From: a virus
DNA length: 37,423 nt
IMG/VR virus record: IMGVR_UViG_3300045988_123575
Span: 1-37,423 of that record
Strand: one strand, 5' to 3'
The notes beneath the pieces were generated by a model. The model had not been told where the DNA came from. It did not search any database and worked only from the letters and a program-made list of their open reading frames with translations. A program made the position numbers and the translations under genes. Shown here in pieces: positions 3,058 to 37,423 of this stretch (the first letter of the stretch is position 1; every line of letters begins with the position of its first letter).

Positions 3058-3144
3058 ATGGATGAAATAACGATAAAAAGATTTCTAACATTAAGAGAAA
3101 TCGAAGACAAATTACGTAACCTATCGGAAGAGGTCGACGTATAA
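3058..3144 (+). CDS. Small ORF (28 aa), in frame with the next small ORF across a TAA
   Basis: ATG at 3058 and TAA at 3142-3144. The sequence looks like a coiled coil. Confidence 0.3.
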   Translation: MDEITIKRFLTLREIEDKLRNLSEEVDV

Positions 3145-3322: not shown

Positions 3323-4128
3323 ATGAAATTAACCACGAAAACAGGAATAGAGTTGATCCGCGCCGGAGAAAACGAAATTCAGATCGAAAAAGTATTATTG
3401 TCGGTATTCGGAGCAGAGCGCAAAGAACAATTAACGCTTTCGGAAATTCACGAAATGAACGAGTTGTTTTTGGAGTATTGCCGCAATATGCAATCTCCTA
3501 AAAACATCGACGATGTTAAGCTACAGTTTAACGTGAAGATCGAAGGAGTTGAGCACGCGGTTATATTGTCCCGTTTTTTTGATATAGACCTGAACGTTCA
3601 TACCGAAATCCTGTTGTCGGAATTTAACCCGGATGAATTTGATCGAATTACAATATTCGTTGCGGCCATGTACGCGCCGTTGATTCAACGAATGTTTGAC
3701 ATTAAATGGGATATCAGCCGGGTTGCTTTGGCTGTGTCGGAAGCCTTAGAAGAATGTCCGTTCGAGGATGTGTATTCAGTTTATGCTTTTTTTTTAAGTT
3801 GGAAAAAAGACTTATCTACGAACTCCGGACTTTCCATGAAACAGTTTTTAAAAACTTACCGACGAAGACAGAAGGAGCAAAAAAGAGCGAAGGCTACTTT
3901 AAAACTGCAATCGACAGCCTTTCTACTCAGGTCCGGTCGACGTATGACCGTTGGCAGACGATTAAATTTCTTTGTAAATACATTCCTGATAAAGACAAAG
4001 CTATTCTTCTGCAATATGATGAAGCGATAGCCGCTATGGTGGCCGACTTCGCTTCTGAATATTCCGCCCGATGGATGGCAAAAGAACAGGAAAATATAGC
4101 CAAAAAAGCTAAAAAAAGGAAAAGATGA
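3323..4128 (+). CDS. Hypothetical protein at the head of the structural block; needs a -1 frame change between about 3787 and 3854 to be read end to end
   Basis: Frame A (ATG 3323) reads plausibly to about 3850 and then turns R/K/F-rich until its stop at 4030. Frame B reads poorly before about 3800 and plausibly afterwards. Frame B ends in a TGA that overlaps the next ATG at 4125. Confidence 0.55.
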
Positions 4129-4568
4129 ATATCGACGACATCTTAGACATAGTAACTGAGAATGCAGTAATAACTTTTAAGAACAGTTATGTTGCGCAGG
4201 GGTATGTTCCTAGGGGAGCCGTCTATGACAGCATACGACGAAATAAACATTCGGTTGAGGCATCTATTGCTGTGGCCACCTTGATCTATGGCCGTCGTCC
4301 CGGGAAATATCCCCCTTGGGGCTATGAGCAGAAAAGTAATAACCGGACGGCCTTAATGAAGTGGGCACAGGATAAATTAGGGGTCGATGAAAAAGCAGCT
4401 AAGAGTATTTCTTTTCTTATTGCCCGGAAGCTGAAATTATACGGAAATGATGTTTACCGGAAATTAAAAGCCCCTATCGATACAACCCCCGCTCGGGAAG
4501 TGGCTATACAGACGATGCAAGAATTAATTTTGAATAACCATAAACAGTTGATAAACAATGGAAAATAG
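4125..4568 (+). CDS. Hypothetical protein (147 aa)
   Basis: Intact ORF with an ATGA overlap upstream. Its TAG stop overlaps the next gene. Confidence 0.65.
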   Translation: MNIDDILDIVTENAVITFKNSYVAQGYVPRGAVYDSIRRNKHSVEASIAVATLIYGRRPGKYPPWGYEQKSNNRTALMKWAQDKLGVDEKAAKSISFLIARKLKLYGNDVYRKLKAPIDTTPAREVAIQTMQELILNNHKQLINNGK

Positions 4569-5388
4569 ATTCTCAGAACAGAAAAACACGACTTCCGATT
4601 TAAACGAATTAAAAGGAAAATATATTGCTGAAAGGGTATGCAAAAAATGGACAGAAGATTTTGTCGACCCTGAATCGGATGAGGTGGTAACAGTTGAAAG
4701 AAGGGAAATCCTTTTTGAAAGAGGAACCGAAATCACACCGGACGTCTTGTCGGAAATTAATTTTTATTTGTCGGCGGGTGACATAGAGAGTATTCCTTAC
4801 TCTAATCAATGCCGAACCGCTTCGGAGTTAGCTGCAAATTATAAGCATCCTATATATTTTACAATAACCATTGGTAAAACTAAGAAGAAAATAATTGCCT
4901 ATGGAGATTCGATAAGGGGAGCATTAGCGGCTGTTGTCGATTGGTTAGAACTAAATTCTAAGGATAGCTTCGGTATTGAAAGTGCTAAAATTATGAAAGC
5001 CATGACGATAATTAAATCTACGATTAAAAGGCCGGAAGATTTAGCACAGGAAGAGGCAAACGAAAAAGAATTTGAAGAAAATGATGGTGAAGAGATTGGA
5101 TTAAAAAAATATCTCTTAACTTTGGATATGTTTGTTGCAGATAAATTGACTGCGGGGGAAGACTATTTGGTTGAAGGGACAGACATTGAAACCGCTAAAT
5201 TTAATGTCGAACAATATTTATACAAGTCTTTGATTGATAAATTAGAGGGAGACGATGTGAAGATAGAAGCATTTAAAAAAAGTTGGCAGGATCGGACAGT
5301 AAAGATTATTGCTGCTAAAGAATTTAAATACGACTTTATTATCGATCCCGAATTTTGTAAAGCATATGACGGATACGGATTTGAATAA
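4558..5388 (+). CDS. Hypothetical protein (276 aa), acidic central region
   Basis: Intact ORF. No secure motif. Confidence 0.7.
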   Translation: MENRFSEQKNTTSDLNELKGKYIAERVCKKWTEDFVDPESDEVVTVERREILFERGTEITPDVLSEINFYLSAGDIESIPYSNQCRTASELAANYKHPIYFTITIGKTKKKIIAYGDSIRGALAAVVDWLELNSKDSFGIESAKIMKAMTIIKSTIKRPEDLAQEEANEKEFEENDGEEIGLKKYLLTLDMFVADKLTAGEDYLVEGTDIETAKFNVEQYLYKSLIDKLEGDDVKIEAFKKSWQDRTVKIIAAKEFKYDFIIDPEFCKAYDGYGFE

Positions 5389-5869
5389 CATAGTAGCGAT
5401 CTTCTTACCGCAGGTTAAAGCGGCAAAAGAAGGGTATTTATGGGCTCAGTATGGCATTGGTGGAATAGAGGGTGTACACTCTCTATTTTACTGTGCTAAT
5501 GCGGAAATAGCCTACGAAGTAATAACAAACCAAATAAAACCTTTTATCCAAAGAGATGAAGGTTATTTTGTTATTTTCCCTATGTCCGATCGGTCGGAGA
5601 TCAACACCACGAATCCCCATCTTACGACTTCTTTTTCTGTGATCCACTTCGGTGCATACGACACCCCTAAAGCACAAGCAATTGCCCGGACCCACACGGT
5701 ACAGCTTTTGGAAATGTTTTGGAGGACGCAGCGCCGATATATTTCTAATATTGTGCTGGGTAGTTCTGACTTCCAAAAATGGAGCGATGATAATTCCGTA
5801 TTGCAACAATATACTAGCTATGTAAGTGTAAATTATGTTCAATCCTATTTGATTGGAAGGCCATGTTAA
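5366..5869 (+). CDS. Hypothetical protein (about 167 aa)
   Basis: The track ORF starts at a TTG at 5309 inside the upstream gene. The first ATG at 5366 is the more likely start. Confidence 0.6.
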   Translation: MTDTDLNNIVAIFLPQVKAAKEGYLWAQYGIGGIEGVHSLFYCANAEIAYEVITNQIKPFIQRDEGYFVIFPMSDRSEINTTNPHLTTSFSVIHFGAYDTPKAQAIARTHTVQLLEMFWRTQRRYISNIVLGSSDFQKWSDDNSVLQQYTSYVSVNYVQSYLIGRPC

Positions 5870-8121
5870 AAATTTATCAGACCCCTATATTCAGAAAAAA
5901 ATACATCGATTCAGACGGTTCGACTAAAGAATTTGTTTATAGAACCGTAGCAACTTTAAATAATATTTCGGTTGTGTTTGAATCCGTACAAATCCCGGTT
6001 AACAAGATCGGGAATAATGGAACAGACGACATCTTTATTCAGGTCGAAGGCGATTATACGACACAGATTTTGCAAGTGCAGAATGAAGTAGGGGCCGATA
6101 ATTTTAATGTGTATCTGTTTGATCCGGTTGATGATGGGTATAATTACTCAGCTTTATACCGAATTTACAACATTATCTACAATGATGGGAAGACACAATT
6201 TTATTTAAAAAATATAGATAATAACGCCGCCGCATTTTTTGGAGATAAGTATTTCGAAAATAGTCAGGCTCAGATCGTATATAAATACCTGAATAATATT
6301 CAGTATGATATATACGATGCGACATTGGTCGGCGATGAACGAGTAGGTAAACTTTTGCTAACTACTAATCAGCCACAACAGGCGAACGGATTATCGGTTT
6401 TAAATGTGTCCGAAATAGTCAGGGGGATAATGGAGGTAGAAGGCTGTAAATCGGTTTACATCGTTGCTACTGAAAAAGACTATTTCGGGAACACTTCCAC
6501 GATTACAAGTTCTATCCTGAACTTTATAAATGGCTACATGATAGGGGGAAATTACCTAAACTATGTACTATATAACCCGTTCGATTTAGGTAAACTTTTA
6601 CCGAACACTCAGGATCGGATTTACTACGATTCTAATATGGTCATGCCCTTTTGGGTAAATTTTATTTTACAGGATATCGGATACGATACCGCGCAAATAT
6701 TCGGAAGAATACGATTTAATTTGTATATAGATGGGAAGATATCTAATATATATCAGGAAGATATAGAATTGATAGAGGGATTGAATACCATAAATATTTG
6801 CGACATATCTCAGCTATGCTCTACAATTATAAGTGTTAAACCCGATACAATCGGCGTAATCGTTACCTATGTGAATAGGTATGAAAAAGAATTTACTGAG
6901 CAATTTACTGATGAATTTCATATCGGAAATACCGAAACGCCAAAGGCATCGCAGGAATATTTTATACCCTGTGAGCAATATACTTTAAACAATAGACGCG
7001 ATTTTTATTTTAGGTATAACAACAGCTACGGCGGTTATTCTACAATGCTGTGCAAATTGTATAAACCGAGTACTGATAATGAAATCGTGTCGCTTCGAAA
7101 TCAGTACGATATTTCTAACGTCGTAGCCCGGCAGACTGAAACAGTAAAATTGCAATGGAAGCAATTAGATATCGATGCCTTGCAACACTTGTTTGGGTAT
7201 GATATCGACGCAATATTTAAACAGAACGGAATTTTCGAAAGCAAGGAGATTGTACAGATTTCAGCAGAACTAGAAGAACGAACCTTCATCATGAAATCCG
7301 TTTCGTACGGCTACCAAAACGGGGACATCTTCCACGATATCGAGTTTGATTTATATCGTCCTCTTAACGCCGGATTTGAAAAACATGGAGGGATAAAGTT
7401 AGATTTAACCTACATACAAAATAACATTGAAAATGCCATAACCCTCTCAAATTCCGAACAACAAATTATAGTAGCATCTAGCACAAATGCCTATAACTCA
7501 ATGTTAATATTAAGTGTACCTATTGCTCAGATTCAAAATTCAACGGTATCATGGTTTATAGGAGAATTAAAATGTACTGGGAAAAATTATGAATTATTTA
7601 CTTTAAGGTGTTTGTATTCAGATGCCAATGGTGTGACTATCGATGGAAGAGTACAAACACAAAAAGTAGGCAAAAATATAACCGGAAATCAACCAATGCC
7701 TGCCCCCCCGGAGAATGCAGTACATTTTAGAGTTTATATTTATGCGGGTGAATTAGGGAAAACACAGGGACAGGGCGCCATAATACAAAATATCATGGTC
7801 GCTTGGGGAAATCCGAATAATCTTTACTATCATCCTACTCCGGCCGAAATAAAAAGTAGTGGGATGGATACGATATTAGCGCATTTATCCTATCAAATTT
7901 TAACCAAGAACACTTATCAGAATGGTTATGGTGTAGCATACCGATCCGGTGCCACTTACAATGAAGTGTTGTTGGAAGATGAAAATACCGAAGCGGATAT
8001 TATTGTCCCCATCCTAGCCGATAAAACGAAAGTAGGCACAATTCAGGGGTTCGTGAACACCAACTACGGCCAACATAAAAGCAATAAATTAAATGTAACC
8101 TATACGGGAGAGGAGTTATGA
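5863..8121 (+). CDS. Large virion (tail or baseplate) protein, 752 aa
   Basis: Its size, and its position directly upstream of a second large protein and the tape measure. The C-terminal third has a beta-sandwich, carbohydrate-binding-like character, judged by eye only. Confidence 0.6.
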   Translation: MLKIYQTPIFRKKYIDSDGSTKEFVYRTVATLNNISVVFESVQIPVNKIGNNGTDDIFIQVEGDYTTQILQVQNEVGADNFNVYLFDPVDDGYNYSALYRIYNIIYNDGKTQFYLKNIDNNAAAFFGDKYFENSQAQIVYKYLNNIQYDIYDATLVGDERVGKLLLTTNQPQQANGLSVLNVSEIVRGIMEVEGCKSVYIVATEKDYFGNTSTITSSILNFINGYMIGGNYLNYVLYNPFDLGKLLPNTQDRIYYDSNMVMPFWVNFILQDIGYDTAQIFGRIRFNLYIDGKISNIYQEDIELIEGLNTINICDISQLCSTIISVKPDTIGVIVTYVNRYEKEFTEQFTDEFHIGNTETPKASQEYFIPCEQYTLNNRRDFYFRYNNSYGGYSTMLCKLYKPSTDNEIVSLRNQYDISNVVARQTETVKLQWKQLDIDALQHLFGYDIDAIFKQNGIFESKEIVQISAELEERTFIMKSVSYGYQNGDIFHDIEFDLYRPLNAGFEKHGGIKLDLTYIQNNIENAITLSNSEQQIIVASSTNAYNSMLILSVPIAQIQNSTVSWFIGELKCTGKNYELFTLRCLYSDANGVTIDGRVQTQKVGKNITGNQPMPAPPENAVHFRVYIYAGELGKTQGQGAIIQNIMVAWGNPNNLYYHPTPAEIKSSGMDTILAHLSYQILTKNTYQNGYGVAYRSGATYNEVLLEDENTEADIIVPILADKTKVGTIQGFVNTNYGQHKSNKLNVTYTGEEL

Positions 8122-20101: not shown

Positions 20102-20818
20102 ATGGCAGTAAAAACTTGTAGACCTAACGATATCGATCACAACGGTTGGTGTTTGAAGGACCTATTTTCTTATGGTGAGGGCTTTGACTTAATTGCCATT
20201 CCTTCAACCGTATGGAATCAGTTAAAAGGTGTTTGGTTGAACCTGAATAATGGTGCCTCCGAATCGCCTAAAAAGGTGTTGGTAGCGGAAGAGGGATCAC
20301 CCCTAGTAAGCTATCAGTATAACGCTCCGCAGAGTTTAACAACTCTTTTCCCGGAGGGTTTCCCGACCGACGTAGCATTGTATTTCAAGGGTAACGCTTT
20401 GATTTTCAACCCTACTGTTGGCAATGCGATCGAGGCTAATGGTGTACCTTATCAACAGTCAACTATCAGTATTCCAATCGGTTCAGACATGTACTACGAC
20501 ATGTTTGCCCAGTTCATGCAGAGTAAGTCTTGGGTTTTCCTGAAACTGAGTTACGACAATCAGGTTTTGCATGTTTACGGTGGTCCCCGTGGTTACTTCC
20601 CGGTAGCCGACGAAATCGCCGAGATGATGTATTCCGGTAACAACGATGCTAAGGGAGAAACTCAACTCTCCTTTACTCAGGAAAAGGCCGCATATACAAT
20701 TGAGTACATCAAGAACGCAGAAGATTCTACGGACTCCGAAGCGCTTCCAAAACTGTTTGCCGAAATTCAAACGGCCATTTGTATTCCGACCACTCCCACA
20801 ACTTCACCGGGAACCTAA
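20102..20818 (+). CDS. Structural protein, short paralogue (238 aa); possibly a decoration or tail-tube protein
   Basis: Residues about 15-185 are near-identical to 22823-23965. It follows the capsid gene and shares an 'agaattATGGC' start context with the tail fibre gene. Confidence 0.7.
   Translation: MAVKTCRPNDIDHNGWCLKDLFSYGEGFDLIAIPSTVWNQLKGVWLNLNNGASESPKKVLVAEEGSPLVSYQYNAPQSLTTLFPEGFPTDVALYFKGNALIFNPTVGNAIEANGVPYQQSTISIPIGSDMYYDMFAQFMQSKSWVFLKLSYDNQVLHVYGGPRGYFPVADEIAEMMYSGNNDAKGETQLSFTQEKAAYTIEYIKNAEDSTDSEALPKLFAEIQTAICIPTTPTTSPGT
20140..20650 (+). repeat. Direct repeat arm 1 (about 510 nt), paralogous to 22860-23370
   Basis: The arms align at an offset of 2720 nt. There is a 123-nt perfect run (20180-20302 = 22900-23022). 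Most differences elsewhere are synonymous. Confidence 0.85.
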
Positions 20819-22822: not shown

Positions 22823-23965
22823 ATGAAATTAACTCCGTGTCGCCCGAATACTTTAGATCGAAATGAATGGTGTTTGAAAGACCTATTTTCTTACGGGGAA
22901 GGCTTTGACTTAATTGCCATTCCTTCAACCGTATGGAATCAGTTAAAAGGTGTTTGGTTGAACCTGAATAATGGTGCCTCCGAATCGCCTAAAAAGGTGT
23001 TGGTAGCGGAAGAGGGATCACCACTGGTAAGTTACCAGTATAACGCTCCGGAAACTTTGTCTACTCTTTTCCCGGAAGGTTTTCCGACCGACGTAGCGTT
23101 GTATTTCAAGGGTAACGCTTTGATTTTCAACCCTACTGTGGGCAATGCAATTGAGGCCAACGGTGTGCCTTATCAGCAGTCAACTATCAGCATTCCAATT
23201 GGTTCAGACATGTACTACGACATGTTCGCCCAGTTTATGCAGAGTAAGTCTTGGGTTTTCTTGAAACTGAGTTACGACAACCAAATTTTGCACGTTTACG
23301 GTGGTCCTCGTGGTTACTTCCCGGTAGCCGACGAAATCGCCGAGATGATGTATTCCGGCAACAATGACAGTAAAGGAATGACTACTTTATCCTTCTCTCA
23401 GCCGAAAGCCCAGTTTACAATCGAATATATAGAGAATGCGAATAACATAGATAGCCCGAACGCTCTCCCCGACTTATTTAAAGCCATCCAAGCTAATATA
23501 TGTAAACCTACAGCTACCAACAATAATATGCAGGGCTTAGTAGGAGAATTGAAGTTTAGCACTGTGATAAATGGAGGCAAAATAAATGGGAAAAATATTA
23601 TCTTTGACCCTGTAGAAGAGGCAGGAGTAACGTCTATACAAATTTATGGGGAATATTCAGATCAATCCCAAATCGACATCTTAAATGCACATAAAGGAGA
23701 AAATCTGTTTTTAAATGGAGAAATAGAATTAAATGTACAAGCTATTCCGACTTGTGCTATAGCGTTCTATTTAAACGAATTAGACGATAACCCTTACACA
23801 ACTCAGTTTGAGCCTTTAAACCAAGGTAAACATACATTTACAATTGCTATCGATCCGCTCCCGGATGTAGAAATTAAAAAATTTGGTATTGCTTTGGTAT
23901 CTCAAACCGAAACAAACGGAACGGTTATATCGTATACAAATTTTGTTTTAGAGACTAAAATGTAG
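22823..23965 (+). CDS. Structural protein, long paralogue (380 aa) with an extra C-terminal domain of about 150 aa
   Basis: The N-terminal ~185 aa are near-identical to 20102-20818. The C-terminal extension looks like a beta-sandwich. Confidence 0.7.
   Translation: MKLTPCRPNTLDRNEWCLKDLFSYGEGFDLIAIPSTVWNQLKGVWLNLNNGASESPKKVLVAEEGSPLVSYQYNAPETLSTLFPEGFPTDVALYFKGNALIFNPTVGNAIEANGVPYQQSTISIPIGSDMYYDMFAQFMQSKSWVFLKLSYDNQILHVYGGPRGYFPVADEIAEMMYSGNNDSKGMTTLSFSQPKAQFTIEYIENANNIDSPNALPDLFKAIQANICKPTATNNNMQGLVGELKFSTVINGGKINGKNIIFDPVEEAGVTSIQIYGEYSDQSQIDILNAHKGENLFLNGEIELNVQAIPTCAIAFYLNELDDNPYTTQFEPLNQGKHTFTIAIDPLPDVEIKKFGIALVSQTETNGTVISYTNFVLETKM
22860..23370 (+). repeat. Direct repeat arm 2 (about 510 nt), paralogous to 20140-20650
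   Basis: Same evidence as for arm 1. Confidence 0.85.
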
Positions 23966-23969
23966 CATC

Positions 23970-24365
23970 ATGAATATATTTCAGAACATAGCAATCAGCA
24001 ATTTACGACTTCGGCCATTCTATCGCAGAAGACATCAACAGGATGCGTCGGATGATATTATCGTAGATGTACAAAAATGGTTCGGCGCTGATCCGGTATT
24101 TAATCAGTACGAACCTTTTCGATTAGGGTATGATATAGAGTTTAGTATTGCTTCTAAAACCGACCTGTTGAAGTGGATAGAGAACGATTACATGTTCGAA
24201 GTATTCAGCGACGAAAATAACCTACAATTAGGAGACAGCGCAGGATTTAAAATTACATCTGTTACCCCTCCCGCGTCTCCGGATGTATGTTTATATAGTT
24301 ATACTTTTAAGAGTGTGAAACCAAATAAAGAACCATTTAAAACCATTAACGATGAAAAAAAGTGA
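23970..24365 (+). CDS. Hypothetical virion-module protein (131 aa)
   Basis: Intact ORF 4 nt after the upstream stop. Confidence 0.6.
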   Translation: MNIFQNIAISNLRLRPFYRRRHQQDASDDIIVDVQKWFGADPVFNQYEPFRLGYDIEFSIASKTDLLKWIENDYMFEVFSDENNLQLGDSAGFKITSVTPPASPDVCLYSYTFKSVKPNKEPFKTINDEKK

Positions 24366-25014
24366 ACAATTAACCCTGCTTTTGGCGTTTTACGATAATC
24401 AACATCGGTTAAGTATGCAGCGGCTTATCCCGGACTTTTTATTGAAATTGAAAAAGACTGGGCAATACGGTATCCAATTAATTCAGAGCAGGCCTCAGTT
24501 ACTCGATGTTATATCCGATTCTAAAGCGCTAATTATGGAAATATCCCGGGCTATGGGAGAGCGCGCAGATATCGACGTGAATTATCGATATTTCTTAGGC
24601 CTAGCCTCAAAAATGCTTCCGGATATAGAACGTGTGGTAACCGAAAAGTACGCATTAACTAAAGCCCATGCGCTCTATCATTTTGGCTATTTCCCCGAGG
24701 ATGCTACACAATATAACATTGTGCGGGTTCTGATGGAAGAGAGGGCAAAAGCCGAAAGCGAAGAGGCCGAAAGCGAAAAGGCCCAAGCCGAAAGCGAAGA
24801 GGCCGAAAGCGAAAAGGCCCAAGCCGAAAGCGAAGAGGCCGAAAGCGAAAAGGCCCAAGCCGAAAGCGAAGAGGTACAAGAAGAACAGCCGGAAGAACAG
24901 CCGGAGACGGACGCTGACCCTAATTTCCAAGCCCCATCGTCGGAAATGACTTCCGAATTTGCCCAAGAAAAACAAGTAAAAAAAGGACATCCAAAGAAGG
25001 TAAAAGATGAATGA
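24352..25014 (+). CDS. Hypothetical protein (220 aa) with an acidic AESEEAESEKAQ tandem repeat
   Basis: Intact ORF that contains the 36-bp tandem repeat. Confidence 0.6.
   Translation: MKKSEQLTLLLAFYDNQHRLSMQRLIPDFLLKLKKTGQYGIQLIQSRPQLLDVISDSKALIMEISRAMGERADIDVNYRYFLGLASKMLPDIERVVTEKYALTKAHALYHFGYFPEDATQYNIVRVLMEERAKAESEEAESEKAQAESEEAESEKAQAESEEAESEKAQAESEEVQEEQPEEQPETDADPNFQAPSSEMTSEFAQEKQVKKGHPKKVKDE
24751..24874 (+). repeat. Perfect 36-bp tandem repeat, 3.4 copies, in frame
   Basis: gccgaaagcgaagaggccgaaagcgaaaaggcccaa at 24751, 24787 and 24823, with a partial copy at 24859-24874. Confidence 0.9.
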
Positions 25015-25477: not shown

Positions 25478-25510
25478 TTTGTGTGGATTATAATTTGGTG
25501 TATACCCCGA

Positions 25511-25543
25511 TCCCCCTTCTACATGGAGGGGGAATTTTTTTTT
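25511..25543 (+). terminator. Intrinsic terminator
   Basis: tcccccttc / tacat / ggaggggga hairpin followed by a T9 run. The T-run is also the 5' end of promoter cassette B. Confidence 0.8.
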
Positions 25544-25633
25544 GAAAAAAAACCTCAAAACGTTTGGTTAATTAAAAAATAGTGCTTACATTTGTAGTGT
25601 TGAAACAATAAAAACATTGAAGCCATGAAAAAT
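25535..25633 (+). promoter_or_regulatory. Promoter/leader cassette copy B (-33 at 25563-25566, -7 at 25587-25594, ATG at 25625)
   Basis: Positions 25536-25633 are identical to 1-98. Confidence 0.8.
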
Positions 25634-26264: not shown

Positions 26265-26522
26265 ATGAGGTATGCACTTAGAAATATAGAGAAAATCCGG
26301 TCCTATTTCGAACCGTACGGAGATGAAATAATAGACCGGATATTAAAAAGCCTAGAGGATTATTTTGCCACGACCACCGGCATAGAAAAAGACATTGTTC
26401 AGGATGTTCGCCCGGTATTGTCGATTAACGACCTAGGGCATTCCTTCGGCCTGATTGAATTTTATATAATAAAGAAAACCTACGACGTCTATATATTGGC
26501 GTTTAAAAGATTCGTAAACTGA
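26265..26522 (+). CDS. Hypothetical protein (85 aa)
   Basis: The ATG at 26265 is 1 nt after the upstream TAA. The track start at 26205 is a TTG inside the upstream gene. Confidence 0.55.
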   Translation: MRYALRNIEKIRSYFEPYGDEIIDRILKSLEDYFATTTGIEKDIVQDVRPVLSINDLGHSFGLIEFYIIKKTYDVYILAFKRFVN

Positions 26523-26926
26523 TGACAGCACACGAAAAACTAATAGCAGACCTAGATAAATGGTTTAGTATATATATCCGCCTCCGAGATGCGAATGAGG
26601 CCGGATTTATAACCTGCATATCTTGCGGCCGGAAAGTATATTGGAAAGACGCGGACGCCGGGCATTACATTCCCCGGAAACACATGGCCACACGATTTAA
26701 CGAGGTAAACGTAAACTCACAGTGCATCGACTGTAACCGATATATGCGCGGAAATATTGACGCCTATCGTGAGGGAATAATTGCCTTACATGGCAGTGAG
26801 ATGTATGAAAAACTGGAAGCGATGAAATTTCAGACTTTTAAGCTATCAGACGCCGAATTAAAGGAGATGCGAACACAGGTAAAAGAAGAGATAAAAAGAT
26901 TGAAAGAAGAAAAGAAATTGAAATGA
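26522..26926 (+). CDS. ninG: NinG/Rap-family recombination endonuclease
   Basis: 'CISCG...DAGHYIPR...RFNEVNVNSQCIDCN...GN..AY' follows the pattern of the lambda NinG C-terminal domain. Confidence 0.8.
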   Translation: MTAHEKLIADLDKWFSIYIRLRDANEAGFITCISCGRKVYWKDADAGHYIPRKHMATRFNEVNVNSQCIDCNRYMRGNIDAYREGIIALHGSEMYEKLEAMKFQTFKLSDAELKEMRTQVKEEIKRLKEEKKLK

Positions 26927-27285
26927 ATCAGGATTATAAATTTGTAGTAAAGGATAGTATTCTAATAAGAGGGATATTAGACAGTTTGCATTATCGTCCG
27001 ATCGATGTATATAAAAGATTAACCGGGGAATTATATATATTCCCGGCTGATAGAGTAATTACAACGAATCGTACAATTTCCGAAAAATGGTCCGGTGAAC
27101 TAGTCGATCTAGGGAATAATATTGACCTATTCAATGAAATATTGGTTCAAAATAAAGGGTATATTTTTAAAGAAAATATATATAAAATAGCCAACATATA
27201 TTGTAAAAAAAGCTGTGGTACATGTCCCTTGGCTCACAAACATTCGTGTAAGGATAGGATAGAGTTTATCGAAAAGTTTTTTTGA
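26923..27285 (+). CDS. Hypothetical protein (120 aa), Cys-rich C-terminus
   Basis: Intact ORF. Its TGA stop lies inside the T-run of cassette C. Confidence 0.55.
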   Translation: MNQDYKFVVKDSILIRGILDSLHYRPIDVYKRLTGELYIFPADRVITTNRTISEKWSGELVDLGNNIDLFNEILVQNKGYIFKENIYKIANIYCKKSCGTCPLAHKHSCKDRIEFIEKFF

Positions 27286-27374
27286 AAAAAAATTGGTAAA
27301 ACGTTTGGTTAATTAAAAAATAGTGCTTACATTTGTAGTGTTAAAACAATAAAAACATTGAAGCCATGAAAAAA
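27277..27374 (+). promoter_or_regulatory. Promoter/leader cassette copy C (-33 at 27304-27307, -7 at 27328-27335); the cassette ATG at 27366 opens only a 10-codon uORF
   Basis: Same cassette with a few substitutions. The uORF at 27366-27398 (MKKVEINVIF) precedes the erf ATG at 27411. Confidence 0.75.
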
Positions 27375-29287: not shown

Positions 29288-29313
29288 GTCCCTCCGAAGA
29301 GGGACATTTTTTT
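29288..29313 (+). terminator. Intrinsic terminator
   Basis: gtccctc / cgaa / gagggac hairpin followed by a T7 run that is shared with cassette D. Confidence 0.75.
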
Positions 29314-29402
29314 GAAAAAAAACCTCAAAACGTTTGGTTAATTAAAAAATAGTACTTACATTTGTAGTGTTGAAACAATAAAAACATTGAAGTCATGAAA
29401 AC
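29307..29402 (+). promoter_or_regulatory. Promoter/leader cassette copy D (-33 at 29333-29336, -7 at 29357-29364, ATG at 29395)
   Basis: Differs from copy A at two positions. Confidence 0.8.
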
Positions 29403-30199: not shown

Positions 30200-30835
30200 A
30201 TGAAAAATTTTGAGGAATTTAAAAATGAAATACGACGAAGGGCAATCTTACATGGAGCATGCGCTGAGCAATATATACGGTTTTGGAAGAAAACAGATTT
30301 TGCGGGATTGTGCGAAGTTATTCGCAACAACTTTATTTGGTGTTGTAATAACATATTTGACAAAGAATTGTTTGAAGTATATGGAGATATCTTGGGCCAA
30401 TACGCTATTAACTATAATAAGAATGTAAATTCGGGATGTTTGATGGTGGACGGTCGTAATAGTGTGAAAGTCGGTGGAAATGTGACGGTCTATGCTAAAG
30501 ATGAAGCCTATATTGTGTCGGACAGTTATTCGCACATCATCGCCCGGGATAACACCATTGTACACGCATACAGGTATGAAAACATAGAAGCTAGTGATAA
30601 TGCAGAGGTAGATGCTTACCGAGGGGCATATGTTATTGCATTTGACGATGCTAGGCTAGAATTGAGTGGCGGTTGTATGGCCAAGATGTACGATAATACT
30701 ACCGCTATAGTAAACGATCTAGTAGTAGTAGTAGGGTTGAATGATAATCACATCATCACTCAGAAAGAATTTAAAGGCGCAATTATTTATCAGGACAAAA
30801 ACCATAAATTTTATCTCCATGAAACGAATAGGTAA
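30200..30835 (+). CDS. Hypothetical protein (211 aa); conserved 'NFxWCC' N-domain plus a repetitive beta-strand region; paralogue of 35492-35896
   Basis: Both proteins share F.EFK...A...C..Y...F..LC.VI..NF.WCC, followed by alternating short strand-like repeats. Confidence 0.65.
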   Translation: MKNFEEFKNEIRRRAILHGACAEQYIRFWKKTDFAGLCEVIRNNFIWCCNNIFDKELFEVYGDILGQYAINYNKNVNSGCLMVDGRNSVKVGGNVTVYAKDEAYIVSDSYSHIIARDNTIVHAYRYENIEASDNAEVDAYRGAYVIAFDDARLELSGGCMAKMYDNTTAIVNDLVVVVGLNDNHIITQKEFKGAIIYQDKNHKFYLHETNR

Positions 30836-31019
30836 CGGTATTTGGCTAATGTATTATTACGGATGTACCATCGTAATAAACGAAGGATTCAAGGAAATCA
30901 CTGTAGGAACACCTAAATCACAGGTGATAAAGTATCAATTTGAAGATACGCCTACAATCGAAGATTTAGAACAGATACAAGGATTAATATTAGAAGCTTA
31001 TGGACCTCAAGCTGCATAA
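30819..31019 (+). CDS. Hypothetical protein (66 aa)
   Basis: The ATG at 30819 overlaps the end of the upstream gene. The track start at 30741 is internal to that gene. Confidence 0.45.
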   Translation: MKRIGNGIWLMYYYGCTIVINEGFKEITVGTPKSQVIKYQFEDTPTIEDLEQIQGLILEAYGPQAA

Positions 31020-31434
31020 CACCATATACGGGCTAATCCCCGTATATGATGAAGATTACGACGAAAAGTTAAAGTTGAAGTTAGGGGAAACCTACACCGC
31101 CAAGATAAAGTTAACCCGGAATTTGGCGTTTCACCGGAAATATTTTGCAATGCTCCGGTGTGCATGGGATTTGCAAAGTGAGGCAGTACAAAATCATTTC
31201 CGCAATAACTTTACTCAATTCCGCAAGACAGTTCAGATCGCCGCCGGGATATCGGAGCCTGTGTACGTAATTAGCCGTAAAGAATTTGTCGAGCAGGCTA
31301 AAAGTATAAGCTTCGAAAGCATGAGCGAAGAGGAATTTATTGATCTGTATAAGAGCGTAAAAAATGTTCTATTCGATGTGTTTCTGAAAAATGTGAGTGA
31401 AAGCGATTTTATGCATATGTTAACTAATTACTGA
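31000..31434 (+). CDS. DUF1367-like phage protein
   Basis: 'TRNLAFHRKYFAMLRCAW' resembles the 'RNxxFHRKFFALL' signature of DUF1367 proteins. Confidence 0.6.
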   Translation: MDLKLHNTIYGLIPVYDEDYDEKLKLKLGETYTAKIKLTRNLAFHRKYFAMLRCAWDLQSEAVQNHFRNNFTQFRKTVQIAAGISEPVYVISRKEFVEQAKSISFESMSEEEFIDLYKSVKNVLFDVFLKNVSESDFMHMLTNY

Positions 31435-31668
31435 TGGAAGATTTTGAAGAAATGAAAGCCCGCAAGAATAGTTACCGGGTCGATTTGGCAGTCCGCATGT
31501 TGGCTAATAAAGGTTACACTCCGGTAGTTGTGGGGAGATAAGGAGGTAAATTTTATTCTGAATGGGCATGTAATAAAATATTTCCCTTATAGAGGATGGT
31601 TTCAGGGCAAAGGATTAAAAGCAGGTAGAGGAATAAAGAATTTAATTAAACAATTGGATGAATTTTAA
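31434..31668 (+). CDS. Small conserved-looking protein split by a +1 frame change near 31528-31541
   Basis: Frame 0 reads MEDFEEMKARKNSYRVDLAVRMLANKGYTPVVVGR*. The +1 frame continues (D)KEVNFILNGHVIKYFPYRGWFQGKGLKAGRGIKNLIKQLDEF* and has no in-frame ATG. A TTG at 31528 is the only start candidate. Confidence 0.5.
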
Positions 31669-31669
31669 T

Positions 31670-31945
31670 ATGGGAAAGATAAAAAACGGTATATTACGGA
31701 AATGTGATAATTGTGGAAAAGAATATATTGCCGACCCAAGAAACCTAAAACGTGGTTAGGGACGTTGTTGTAGTAAGATTTGCGCTGCGAAGAAAAGAGA
31801 AAAATCTAAGCCCGGATATAATCCTATCCGTGTTGCTATCAATAATAGGCGAAGAGTGGAATGGAATATCCCTAAATATCCATTTAACTATGATGGCGCA
31901 GACGATGATCAATGGGGAGATTGTGAATTTGGAATACATGATTAA
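31670..31945 (+). CDS. Zinc-ribbon protein (91 codons) interrupted by an in-frame TAG at 31757-31759
   Basis: It reads MGKIKNGILRKCDNCGKEYIADPRNLKRG[TAG]GRCCSKICAAKKREKSK... The CxxC...CSxxC motif spans the stop. There is no start codon after the TAG. Confidence 0.55.
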
Positions 31946-31961
31946 TTAAGCAATTTTGAAT

Positions 31962-32240
31962 ATGGAAATAGAAGAGTTGAAAGAATGGTTGAATCGAAAT
32001 GGATTTGAAGAGGTAGATAAAAGTGGAGAATGGGAAAAAAATGTATGGGGAAAAGATAATTATCGAATCCTGATCCATCCGGAATCGAACGATTTTTCTC
32101 TGATTGAAAAGATAGAGGACGAATGGATGTGGGCCCGAAGAGCCTTACCGGGTTTTACCATCCTTAAACTGAAAAAGTTGTTTGTTGATGTTCATAGTGA
32201 ATTAGGAGCAAGAATTATTAGTAAATTCAGTTGGACATGA
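31962..32240 (+). CDS. Hypothetical protein (92 aa)
   Basis: The first ATG is at 31962. The track start at 31956 is a TTG. Confidence 0.55.
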   Translation: MEIEELKEWLNRNGFEEVDKSGEWEKNVWGKDNYRILIHPESNDFSLIEKIEDEWMWARRALPGFTILKLKKLFVDVHSELGARIISKFSWT

Positions 32241-32413
32241 GAAAACGCCTCCCTGATAAGCTACCTAAGAAAAAACCGTCTGATTGCCTACAGTGTGAGC
32301 ACTGTAAAGAACTAACATGGTTTAATCGCATTGTGTGTGATCGAGCCGTGGTGCCTATAGAAAATTGTTTAACCCGAAAAATAGAATGTGTAAAATGGAA
32401 GCAAAAGAAATAG
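32231..32413 (+). CDS. Hypothetical Cys-rich protein (60 aa)
   Basis: Intact ORF that ends in TAG. Confidence 0.45.
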   Translation: MDMRKRLPDKLPKKKPSDCLQCEHCKELTWFNRIVCDRAVVPIENCLTRKIECVKWKQKK

Positions 32414-32628
32414 TACATGAAATAATAACCGATCTCCGGGCTACCTGCATGCGTAAGGGGATATCTCCTAATCGCGTACTGGGTTATATGGGTGCGTACG
32501 ATTGCCGTATATATTATCCCAAAGCTATTACACCCGATATTACATTATTAGCAAAGCTTTCCGGCCAAGGGAAAAGGTACGAAAAAATACCCGGTAGCAA
32601 GTCGAATATACTGAAAATTTATTTCTAA
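32395..32628 (+). CDS. Hypothetical protein (about 77 aa)
   Basis: The start is an ATG at 32395, or alternatively 32386. It overlaps the upstream gene. Confidence 0.5.
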   Translation: MEAKEIVHEIITDLRATCMRKGISPNRVLGYMGAYDCRIYYPKAITPDITLLAKLSGQGKRYEKIPGSKSNILKIYF

Positions 32629-32641
32629 ATAAATCCATATC

Positions 32642-33247: not shown

Positions 33248-33433
33248 ATGAAAGAGAATGAATTTAACACTTTAGCTAGTAAGCTGTACATTTCGAAGTT
33301 AGAAGCTTATTAGAATGGGTTTAAGAAATCCCTGATCGTAGATAAGGAAAAGCTTGCCGACGAAGCGATCGAGGAAGCGAACATCTTCCTACGGGCTATC
33401 CGTAAATATGAGGACACCTGTAGTCAGGTGTAA
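33248..33433 (+). CDS. Small helical protein (61 codons) interrupted by an in-frame TAG at 33311-33313
   Basis: It reads MKENEFNTLASKLYISKLEAY[TAG]NGFKKSLIVDKEKLADEAIEEANIFLRAIRKYEDTCSQV*. There is no in-frame start after the TAG. Confidence 0.45.
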
Positions 33434-34966: not shown

Positions 34967-35413
34967 ATGGAAGTAAAGTATATTGCAATACATTGTAGCG
35001 CCACCAAAGAAGGCAAAGATTATCACGCAGCCGATATAGATAAATGGCACCGGGAACGGGGATTTAAAAAGATCGGCTATCATTACGTTATAACGCTAGA
35101 CGGCATTATCGAGCAGGGGAGAAAACTGGATGAAGTTGGAGCGCATGTACAAGGGTATAACAGCGTTTCCCTTGGTGTATGCTATATTGGTGGCCTAGAC
35201 GAAAATGGAAAGCCTAAAGATACCCGTACGGAGGCACAGAAGCAAACCTTAATAGATTTGCTTACTATCCTTAGAGGAGAATACCCTGACGCTATTATTC
35301 AGGGGCATCGTGACTTTTCACCGGATGTTAACGGAGACGGTATTATAACGCCGGATGAATTTATAAAAGATTGTCCCTGCTTCGATGCAAAAAAAGAATA
35401 CGCCAAAATTTAA
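34967..35413 (+). CDS. N-acetylmuramoyl-L-alanine amidase (Amidase_2 / T7-lysozyme-like endolysin) with an EF-hand-like insertion
   Basis: 'IAIHCSAT', 'GYHYVI', 'QGHRDF' and 'CPCFD' match the Zn-ligand and catalytic pattern of Amidase_2. 'DVNGDGIITPDE' is inserted between the His and Cys ligands. Confidence 0.85.
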   Translation: MEVKYIAIHCSATKEGKDYHAADIDKWHRERGFKKIGYHYVITLDGIIEQGRKLDEVGAHVQGYNSVSLGVCYIGGLDENGKPKDTRTEAQKQTLIDLLTILRGEYPDAIIQGHRDFSPDVNGDGIITPDEFIKDCPCFDAKKEYAKI

Positions 35414-35494
35414 AAAAAAACCTCAAAACGCTTGTTTCATTCAAAAAAACAATATCTATATTTGCATCGTTGAACAATAAAAATAGAAGTCATG
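35403..35494 (+). promoter_or_regulatory. Degenerate promoter cassette copy E (-7 TAtaTTTG at 35447-35454, ATG at 35492)
   Basis: It shares 'aaaaaaaacctcaaaacg' and 'gttgaacaataaaaa..gaagtcATGgaa' with the main cassette. The -33 is degenerate. Confidence 0.6.
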
Positions 35495-37325: not shown

Positions 37326-37423
37326 TTTTTTTTGAAAAAAAACCTCAAAACGTTTGGTTAATTAAAAAATAGTGCTTACATTTGTAGTGTTGAAACAATA
37401 AAAACATTGAAGCCATGAAAAAT
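37326..37423 (+). promoter_or_regulatory. Promoter/leader cassette copy F, the same locus as copy A because of the terminal overlap of a circular assembly
   Basis: 98 nt identical to 1-98. The terL TGA stop abuts the T8 run. Confidence 0.8.

Follow-up and report, generated by a model that had tools for sequence, protein, structure and literature searches.

An amber codon in the zinc-ribbon gene of an uncultured gut phage: most likely a common loss-of-function allele

We analysed a viral DNA stretch of 37,423 nucleotides (IMG/VR record IMGVR_UViG_3300045988_123575, hereafter the window), in which a small zinc-ribbon gene is interrupted by an in-frame TAG. A single G>A change at position 31758 has turned an invariant Trp codon, TGG, into this amber codon. 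We consider, with a probability of about 0.9, that translation plainly terminates at this nonsense codon in a dispensable gene and that the amber is a common loss-of-function allele. The initial annotation had offered three explanations, namely amber readthrough, partial recoding of TAG, and a recent nonsense mutation. The third of these is supported by sibling genomes carrying TGG and by Trp in at least 90 % of the homologues, and recoding is contradicted by the absence of tRNA genes, by genes that end in TAG, and by Trp and Ser rather than Gln at the interrupted positions. The word recent, however, does not hold, since the allele is common (214 versus ∼420 contigs) and lies on diverse haplotypes. 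As a textbook nonsense allele in a dispensable gene it carries small biological weight.

Translation would most likely stop at the TAG and leave a fragment of 33 aa, or 29 aa from the alternative start. This fragment would keep the CxxC knuckle and lose the CCxxxC half-site, the helices and the acidic C-terminal motif. Because of these losses, the allele is presumably a loss-of-function one.

The amber codon and its reading frame

The reading frame was confirmed as it had been reported: it opens at ATG 31670, meets the TAG (in the window, AAA CGT GGT TAG GGA CGT TGT TGT AGT AAG ATT TGC), and continues for 61 further codons to a TAA at 31943-31945. The gene callers used for sibling genomes start instead at ATG 31658 (MNFNMGK...), which gives a protein of 95 aa, while the intact form from ATG 31670 has 91 aa; the TAG is thus codon 34 from the first start and codon 30 from the second. 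Either start is possible, and distant homologues mostly begin near MGK/MKRK. The TAG falls between the CxxC and the CCxxxC half-sites. The downstream half had been described as lacking a start codon, which is right for ATG and TTG but overlooks an in-frame GTG at 31856, 29 codons before the stop. The features discussed here are collected in Table 1.

Table 1 Interrupted genes, nonsense codons and independent lesions in the window and its siblings.
Feature	Position in the window	Strand	Change or product	Basis
Zinc-ribbon gene with amber allele	31658..31945	+		Full-length homologues; invariant Cys and W34
Amber codon W34>TAG	31757..31759	+	31758 G>A; followed by G (TAG-G)	TGG or TAG in sibling loci; counts of the 33-aa product
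ORF of predicted truncated product	31658..31759	+	33 aa, CxxC half-site only	Product in public contigs
Zinc-ribbon gene, insertion	after 31810		+C; 54-aa product	L015, L016
Zinc-ribbon gene, 5-bp deletion	31857-61		70-aa product	∼10 contigs (L044-L047)
Zinc-ribbon gene, 14-bp deletion	31852-65		67 aa	L048
Zinc-ribbon gene, 5-bp deletion on amber background	31889-93			L018
77-aa gene (phrog_28096)	31434..31668	+	+G in the G-run 31531-31534	Intact in siblings
61-aa gene, S22>TAG	33248..33433	+	TCG>TAG, 33312 C>A; codon 33311-33313	Rare allele
75-aa gene, Q29>TAA	3058..3285	+	CAA>TAA, 3142 C>T; ochre 3142-3144	Rare allele
Gene with altered C-terminus	23970..24365	+	1-base deletion in an A-run at 24338; 131 versus 126 aa	Sibling comparison

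A zinc-ribbon protein conserved across the amber site

Using the read-through protein as the query, we found 54 relatives of 86-95 aa, nearly all of them uninterrupted. These homologues cross the position of the TAG unbroken, which confirms the proposal that the two halves form one protein and rules out a chance pattern. None of them ends at that position. In their alignment, Trp fills the column of the TAG in at least 90 % of the 54 sequences and in all 40 of the full-length ones, so the change is a TGG>TAG substitution produced by a single G>A transition.

Five cysteines, C16, C19, C37, C38 and C42, are invariant in 40 homologues with the spacing C16-x2-C19-x17-C37-C38-x3-C42, and the candidate Cys ligands are C16, C19, C37/C38 and C42. 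The downstream half contributes further invariant residues (K40, A43, R47, E48, Y54, V59, N62, N63 and R66), and the C-terminal motif YDGADxDQWGDCEFGIHD is largely conserved. With residues conserved in both halves, the two form one protein, and everything beyond residue 33 matters to the family. In an AlphaFold model of the intact protein, of moderate quality (pLDDT 69.6 overall, 81-86 over residues 11-60), a beta hairpin at residues 12-25 is followed by helices. The two conserved Cys pairs and the modelled knuckle/hairpin fold are those of a four-Cys zinc ribbon, for which metal binding is predicted.

The initial annotation had likened this arrangement to the N-terminus of lambda NinG. This likeness was not borne out: the intact protein (P0056) matched no Pfam family even at E≤1, NinG (PF05766) included. 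A sequence search of the PDB returned no match, and a Foldseek search with the model gave nothing significant, the best hits at E∼1 being YacG and an FCS finger. The PHROG matches were all weak and concerned zinc-ribbon termini, those of an HNH endonuclease family and those of unknown proteins. The protein shares its Cys pattern, and a knuckle followed by a helix, with the small phage CxxC...C(C)xxxC zinc ribbons (FCS/TRASH-like, modules at the ends of HNH endonucleases, YacG-like fingers). Unlike them, it has no Pfam, PDB-sequence or significant fold match, and it carries a conserved acidic C-terminal motif of its own, YDGADDDQWGDCEFGIHD. Its relatives in reference genomes come mostly from Dysgonomonas, Tannerellaceae and Bacteroidia MAGs.

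The amber is a common allele of the phage population

Whether the allele is real was judged by comparison across independent assemblies. Contigs encoding an intact protein 98 % identical to the read-through form (P0001) are ∼99.7 % identical to the window over 8-18 kb. Over the 8 kb that they have in common, the window deviates at a few positions from a base on which the four relatives are unanimous; among these are A instead of G at 31758, one additional G at 31532 and A instead of C at 33312. Among the sibling loci, positions 31757-31759 read TGG in 15 and TAG in 13. The exact 33-aa truncated product was found in 214 public contigs and is indexed in 376 blocks; the contigs inspected stem from a large number of independent human-gut studies, were built with different assemblers and reach coverages of 20x and 52x. 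For the intact 95-aa protein the count is 408 contigs, or ∼420 with a few minor variants. These are exact-sequence counts of contigs rather than of independent samples, in which 33-aa ORFs may be under-called. The amber is a true common allele, present in about one third of the roughly 660 public contigs of this phage. A scan of JGI metagenomes with the variable base masked returned one contig, the amber carrier L027, which yields no unbiased allele frequency, and a pattern scan of IMG/VR for the locus gave no match.

An assembly error had been named as a case that would overturn the observation. Two of the window's differences, at 31532 and 24338, are changes of homopolymer length and might raise the suspicion that this one contig was misread or misassembled, or is a false consensus of mixed phages. 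The TAG, the +G and the 1-base deletion nevertheless all recur in dozens to hundreds of independent assemblies, which reach 20-52x coverage. Both TGG and TAG are found in other assemblies, as expected of a true polymorphism. The second amber, S22>TAG, likewise recurs in L005 and L023, and fragments of the ochre allele occur in 11 contigs. This recurrence in independent assemblies refutes the error reading of the amber, to which we assign practically no probability. A shared mutational signature was also considered and dropped; besides several G>A, the private changes include C>A, T>G, A>C and T>C, and they share no sequence context.

We then aligned 2.9 kb around the site from 28 genomes, 13 with TAG and 15 with TGG. 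Mean pairwise differences per 2.9 kb were 8.05 among carriers, 7.86 among non-carriers and 10.5 between the groups, and no sweep-like loss of diversity was seen in the carriers. The allele sits on several recombinant backgrounds, some of which hold an extra PAPS-reductase gene (L017, L020, L026); with backgrounds so diverse, it is not a recent singleton.

No evidence that TAG is recoded

A partial or genome-wide reading of TAG as Gln (code 15) is known from some gut phages, including Bacteroidales crAss-like phages (PMC9523058). ARAGORN found no tRNA gene in the window, nor in any of 23 related loci, which include both carriers and non-carriers. The 44 intact genes end in TAA (26), TGA (13) or TAG (5), and each of the five genes ending in TAG is closely followed or overlapped by the next gene. 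These 44 genes, with every large structural gene among them, span 11,388 codons and contain no in-frame stop; in-frame TAGs occur in the genome just twice, each time in a small accessory gene. ORFs on the plus strand cover 91-95 % of the window in the standard code, and the gain is ∼2 points if TAG is read as sense and ∼1 point if TGA is, whereas recoded phages are recognized by a gain in coding density of more than 10 % on contigs of 5-100 kb (Borges et al., bioRxiv 10.1101/2021.08.26.457843). In short, the window showed none of the marks of code 15, that is, a density gain, many TAGs in late genes, depletion of TAG as a terminator, a phage tRNA-CUA or alignment of TAG with Gln.

One observation did point toward recoding. 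A protein with Gln at the amber position (P0058) is listed for 20 contigs by exact count, or 39 index blocks, all of them short; a public gene caller had rendered the amber as Q there. In the ten loci inspected (L028-L037), however, the DNA reads TAG in 10 of 10 and the protein cannot be obtained by translation with table 11, so the Q is an artefact. On contigs of ∼1 kb, a single nonsense allele led the caller to choose a table with TAG as Gln, and thus a W34Q protein absent from the DNA was deposited. For the same reason we rejected the idea that P0058 is a TAG>CAG pseudo-revertant. We therefore advise caution in annotation: one amber allele was enough to produce a non-existent protein in public data, and an isolated in-frame TAG in a Bacteroidota-type phage gives no ground for calling recoding unless genome-wide signatures accompany it.

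The second in-frame TAG reported at 33311 is real, but relatives read TCG (Ser) there, not Trp or Gln. Among the loci, S22>TAG is limited to the window, L005 and L023, and the intact 61-aa protein occurs in 725 contigs. The ochre codon in the 75-aa gene is also rare: eight loci have CAA, the intact protein occurs in 466 contigs, and the fragments P0104 and P0105 occur in 2 and 9 contigs. The interruptions of the window are thus mixed, comprising two TAG, one TAA and two indels, and the substitutions replace W, S and Q. Such a mixture of lesion kinds speaks for mutation and not for a reassigned codon. Codon usage predicts that TAG would make up 34-38 % of random nonsense substitutions in this genome, so two TAGs among three nonsense changes are unremarkable.

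The window does resemble the TAG>Gln gut phages (code 15; crAss-like, Lak and others) in its human-gut origin, in having an in-frame TAG in a conserved gene, and in a host that is probably a member of the Bacteroidota. It differs from them in that its only two TAGs are polymorphic against Trp and Ser, that TAG terminates genes, that the phage has no suppressor tRNA, that its density is already 91-95 % and that the genes hit are small accessory ones, not late or lysis genes. Taken together, we regard recoding as having close to zero probability, and the nonsense mutation remains the preferred explanation.

Linked and independent lesions in the accessory genes

The gene directly upstream, whose end overlaps the start of the zinc-ribbon gene, is itself broken in the window. 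The inserted G makes its frame-3 ORF end at TAA 31539-31541, with the remainder in frame 1. This broken gene yields a 35-aa product found in 282 contigs, versus ∼440 with the intact gene. The frameshift lies 226 bp upstream of the amber and is present in 12 of 13 carriers versus 1 of 15 non-carriers. Two genomes separate the lesions: L012 has the frameshift with TGG, and L020 has the TAG with an intact upstream gene. They may be intermediate or recombinant forms, and the order of the lesions is one that we infer. The frameshift would stop translation 117 nt before the zinc-ribbon start; translational coupling may thereby have been lost and selection on the zinc-ribbon gene relaxed. For the 77-aa gene we also considered programmed +1 frameshifting at its G-run (GGG AGA TAA) and rejected it, since the one point in its favour is that the wild-type protein is recovered wherever in the run the shift occurs. 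The 1-base deletion at 24338 is also common, with 226 contigs, and co-occurs with the amber haplotype in most loci. The sub-lineage of the window has in addition gained the second amber (Ser>TAG at 33312) and the ochre (Gln>TAA at 3142) in other small genes.

The zinc-ribbon gene, only 288 bp long, is broken at least five times in the population, the W34 amber included (Table 1). Judged from these sequences, the gene is dispensable in nature. The deletion in L018 arose on the amber background, and it is the one direct hint that the downstream half may decay freely in carriers. In the other 12 of the 13 carriers the 61 codons past the TAG are unchanged; as the population is only ∼0.3 % divergent, there has been little time for decay, and this comparison has no power as a test of constraint on the downstream half.

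For a nonsense allele one expects a sense codon one substitution away, the same change in independent assemblies and other independent lesions in the gene, and all three were found. Natural nonsense alleles in non-essential phage genes, such as those of the lambda nin region, offer the closest likeness, with a stop created by a single base, polymorphism among near-identical genomes and a location in a block of small genes. Compared with the usual examples, the amber of the window is unusually well sampled and common, and it occurs on multiple recombinant backgrounds. Its frequency of about one third on many backgrounds argues against plain loss, as it exceeds the naive expectation for a deleterious mutation.

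As a separate observation, two genomes homologous to window 30200-32240 (L044 and L047) have a 211-aa gene split into 75 and 130 aa, the 77-aa gene reduced to 30 aa and a 92-aa gene reduced to 32 aa. From these breaks, the whole accessory block appears to tolerate inactivating polymorphisms.

Possible readthrough or adaptive loss

Functional readthrough, by an amber suppressor tRNA of the host or by near-cognate decoding, would supply some full-length protein, possibly depending on the host. The downstream frame that is intact in 12 of 13 carriers is consistent with it, as is an allele that is common and old enough to occur on diverse backgrounds. The probable Bacteroidales host adds to this, since crAss-like phages of that group read TAG as Gln (PMC9523058). 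On the other hand, neither the phage nor its relatives encode a tRNA, and TAG works as the terminator of five genes closely followed or overlapped by the next one. In addition, the overlapping 77-aa gene is frameshifted in 12 of 13 carriers and is beyond rescue by suppression, L018 has a second, frameshifting lesion downstream of the TAG, and other lineages have knocked out the zinc-ribbon gene by indels. The conserved residue is moreover Trp, and natural amber suppressors inserting Trp are unusual. We consider readthrough improbable, as no evidence specific to it was found. A more specific version, in which the amber is host-conditional and the full-length protein would be made with a suppressor tRNA of a Bacteroidales host or one from a co-infecting TAG-recoding phage, seems to us highly improbable; if it were true, the frequency of about one third would stem from selection favouring an accessory function that can be switched.

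Termination at a nonsense codon thus remains the preferred reading, and it can be refined. Loss of the 77-aa and zinc-ribbon genes may be adaptive in some hosts, for instance if one of the proteins triggers host defence, and adaptive loss would account for both the frequency of about one third and the repeated independent knockouts. The two adjacent, overlapping genes are often inactivated together (282 and 214 contigs), at least five independent lesions fall in a gene of 288 bp, and nearly every copy of nearby genes such as those of 61 aa (intact in 725 contigs) and 75 aa (intact in 466) is unbroken. Against this, no sweep signature was seen, with diversity in carriers equal to that in non-carriers; other accessory genes nearby are sporadically broken (L044, L047), as in a dispensable region; and neither protein has an assigned function. 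We hold this refinement to be unlikely, though the high frequency and the repeated knockouts are suggestive. In any case the amber marks the pair as non-essential, and as lost time and again, in an uncultured gut phage of very wide distribution, and its repeated loss offers an entry point to the question of neutral versus host-defence-driven loss.

Genome organization and host

The first 98 bp of the window are repeated exactly and in the same orientation at its end (1-98 = 37326-37423), and one related locus (L001) reads across the junction. Because of this repeat and junction, the window is taken to be a complete genome of ∼37.3 kb that is either circular or circularly permuted. All its genes lie on one strand. 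A megablast search of 5 kb against cultured-phage records gave no match, and tblastn with the terminase reached at best only ∼24 % identity, to Listeria phages, so that neither a cultured relative nor a host was found by that route.

A near-identical intergenic repeat of ∼95 bp occurs four times (1-98/37326-37423, 25536-25633, 27277-27373 and 29307-29401), with a related element at ∼35410-35490, and the terminal 98-bp overlap coincides with one of these copies. The copies carry TTTG-N20-TACATTTG, which fits the -33/-7 promoter consensus of Bacteroidota. At the end of every copy stands an ATGAAAA start, and two of the copies (at 25510 and 29280) are preceded by a G+C-rich hairpin and a T-run. 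The repeats are probably promoter and 5'-leader cassettes heading successive operons. Based on these promoter-like repeats and on the relatives of the zinc-ribbon protein, the host is probably a Bacteroidales bacterium.

Small ORFs surround the zinc-ribbon gene in the region that separates a NinG/Rap homologue (26522..26926) from the packaging genes, and a NinB/Orf homologue (31000..31434) lies upstream of it. In lambda, the nin region is a block of non-essential genes marked by NinB/Orf and NinG, and by analogy the layout of this neighbourhood resembles it. The NinG/Rap homologue, of 134 aa, matches positions 72-193 of the 193 in Pfam NinG and lacks the N-terminal part of lambda NinG.

An accessory swap in the nin-like region was also seen. 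Some near-identical genomes carry a PAPS-reductase-family gene (PF01507) of 289-313 aa (L017 10749-11690, L020 9167-10108, L026 5100-5969), which together with a 77-aa gene replaces the 80-aa gene of the window; the insertion corresponds to about window 32410-32630.

Several minor observations concern the rest of the genome. The gene at 24352..25014 contains a perfect 36-bp tandem repeat of 3.5 copies (24749-24874) encoding an Ala/Glu/Lys-rich stretch, and its relatives have 196, 208 or 220 aa, a copy-number variation in 12-aa steps. A 133-bp segment at 20511-20643 is ∼93 % identical to 23232-23364, which hints at a domain duplication involving two genes for tail or structural proteins (20102..20818 and 22823..23965). 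A 140-aa ATG ORF at 3706..4128 overlaps the 235-aa gene at 3323..4030 by ∼320 nt in another frame and is uncalled in relatives; it is probably spurious. Finally, the ORFs 4558..5388 and 5309..5869 overlap by 80 nt immediately upstream of a 752-aa ORF (5863..8121) that may encode the tape measure. This pair recalls the frameshift layout of tail-assembly chaperones, but its downstream frame is at +1 (or -2), and a TTTAAAT at 5323 is out of register for a canonical -1 slip.
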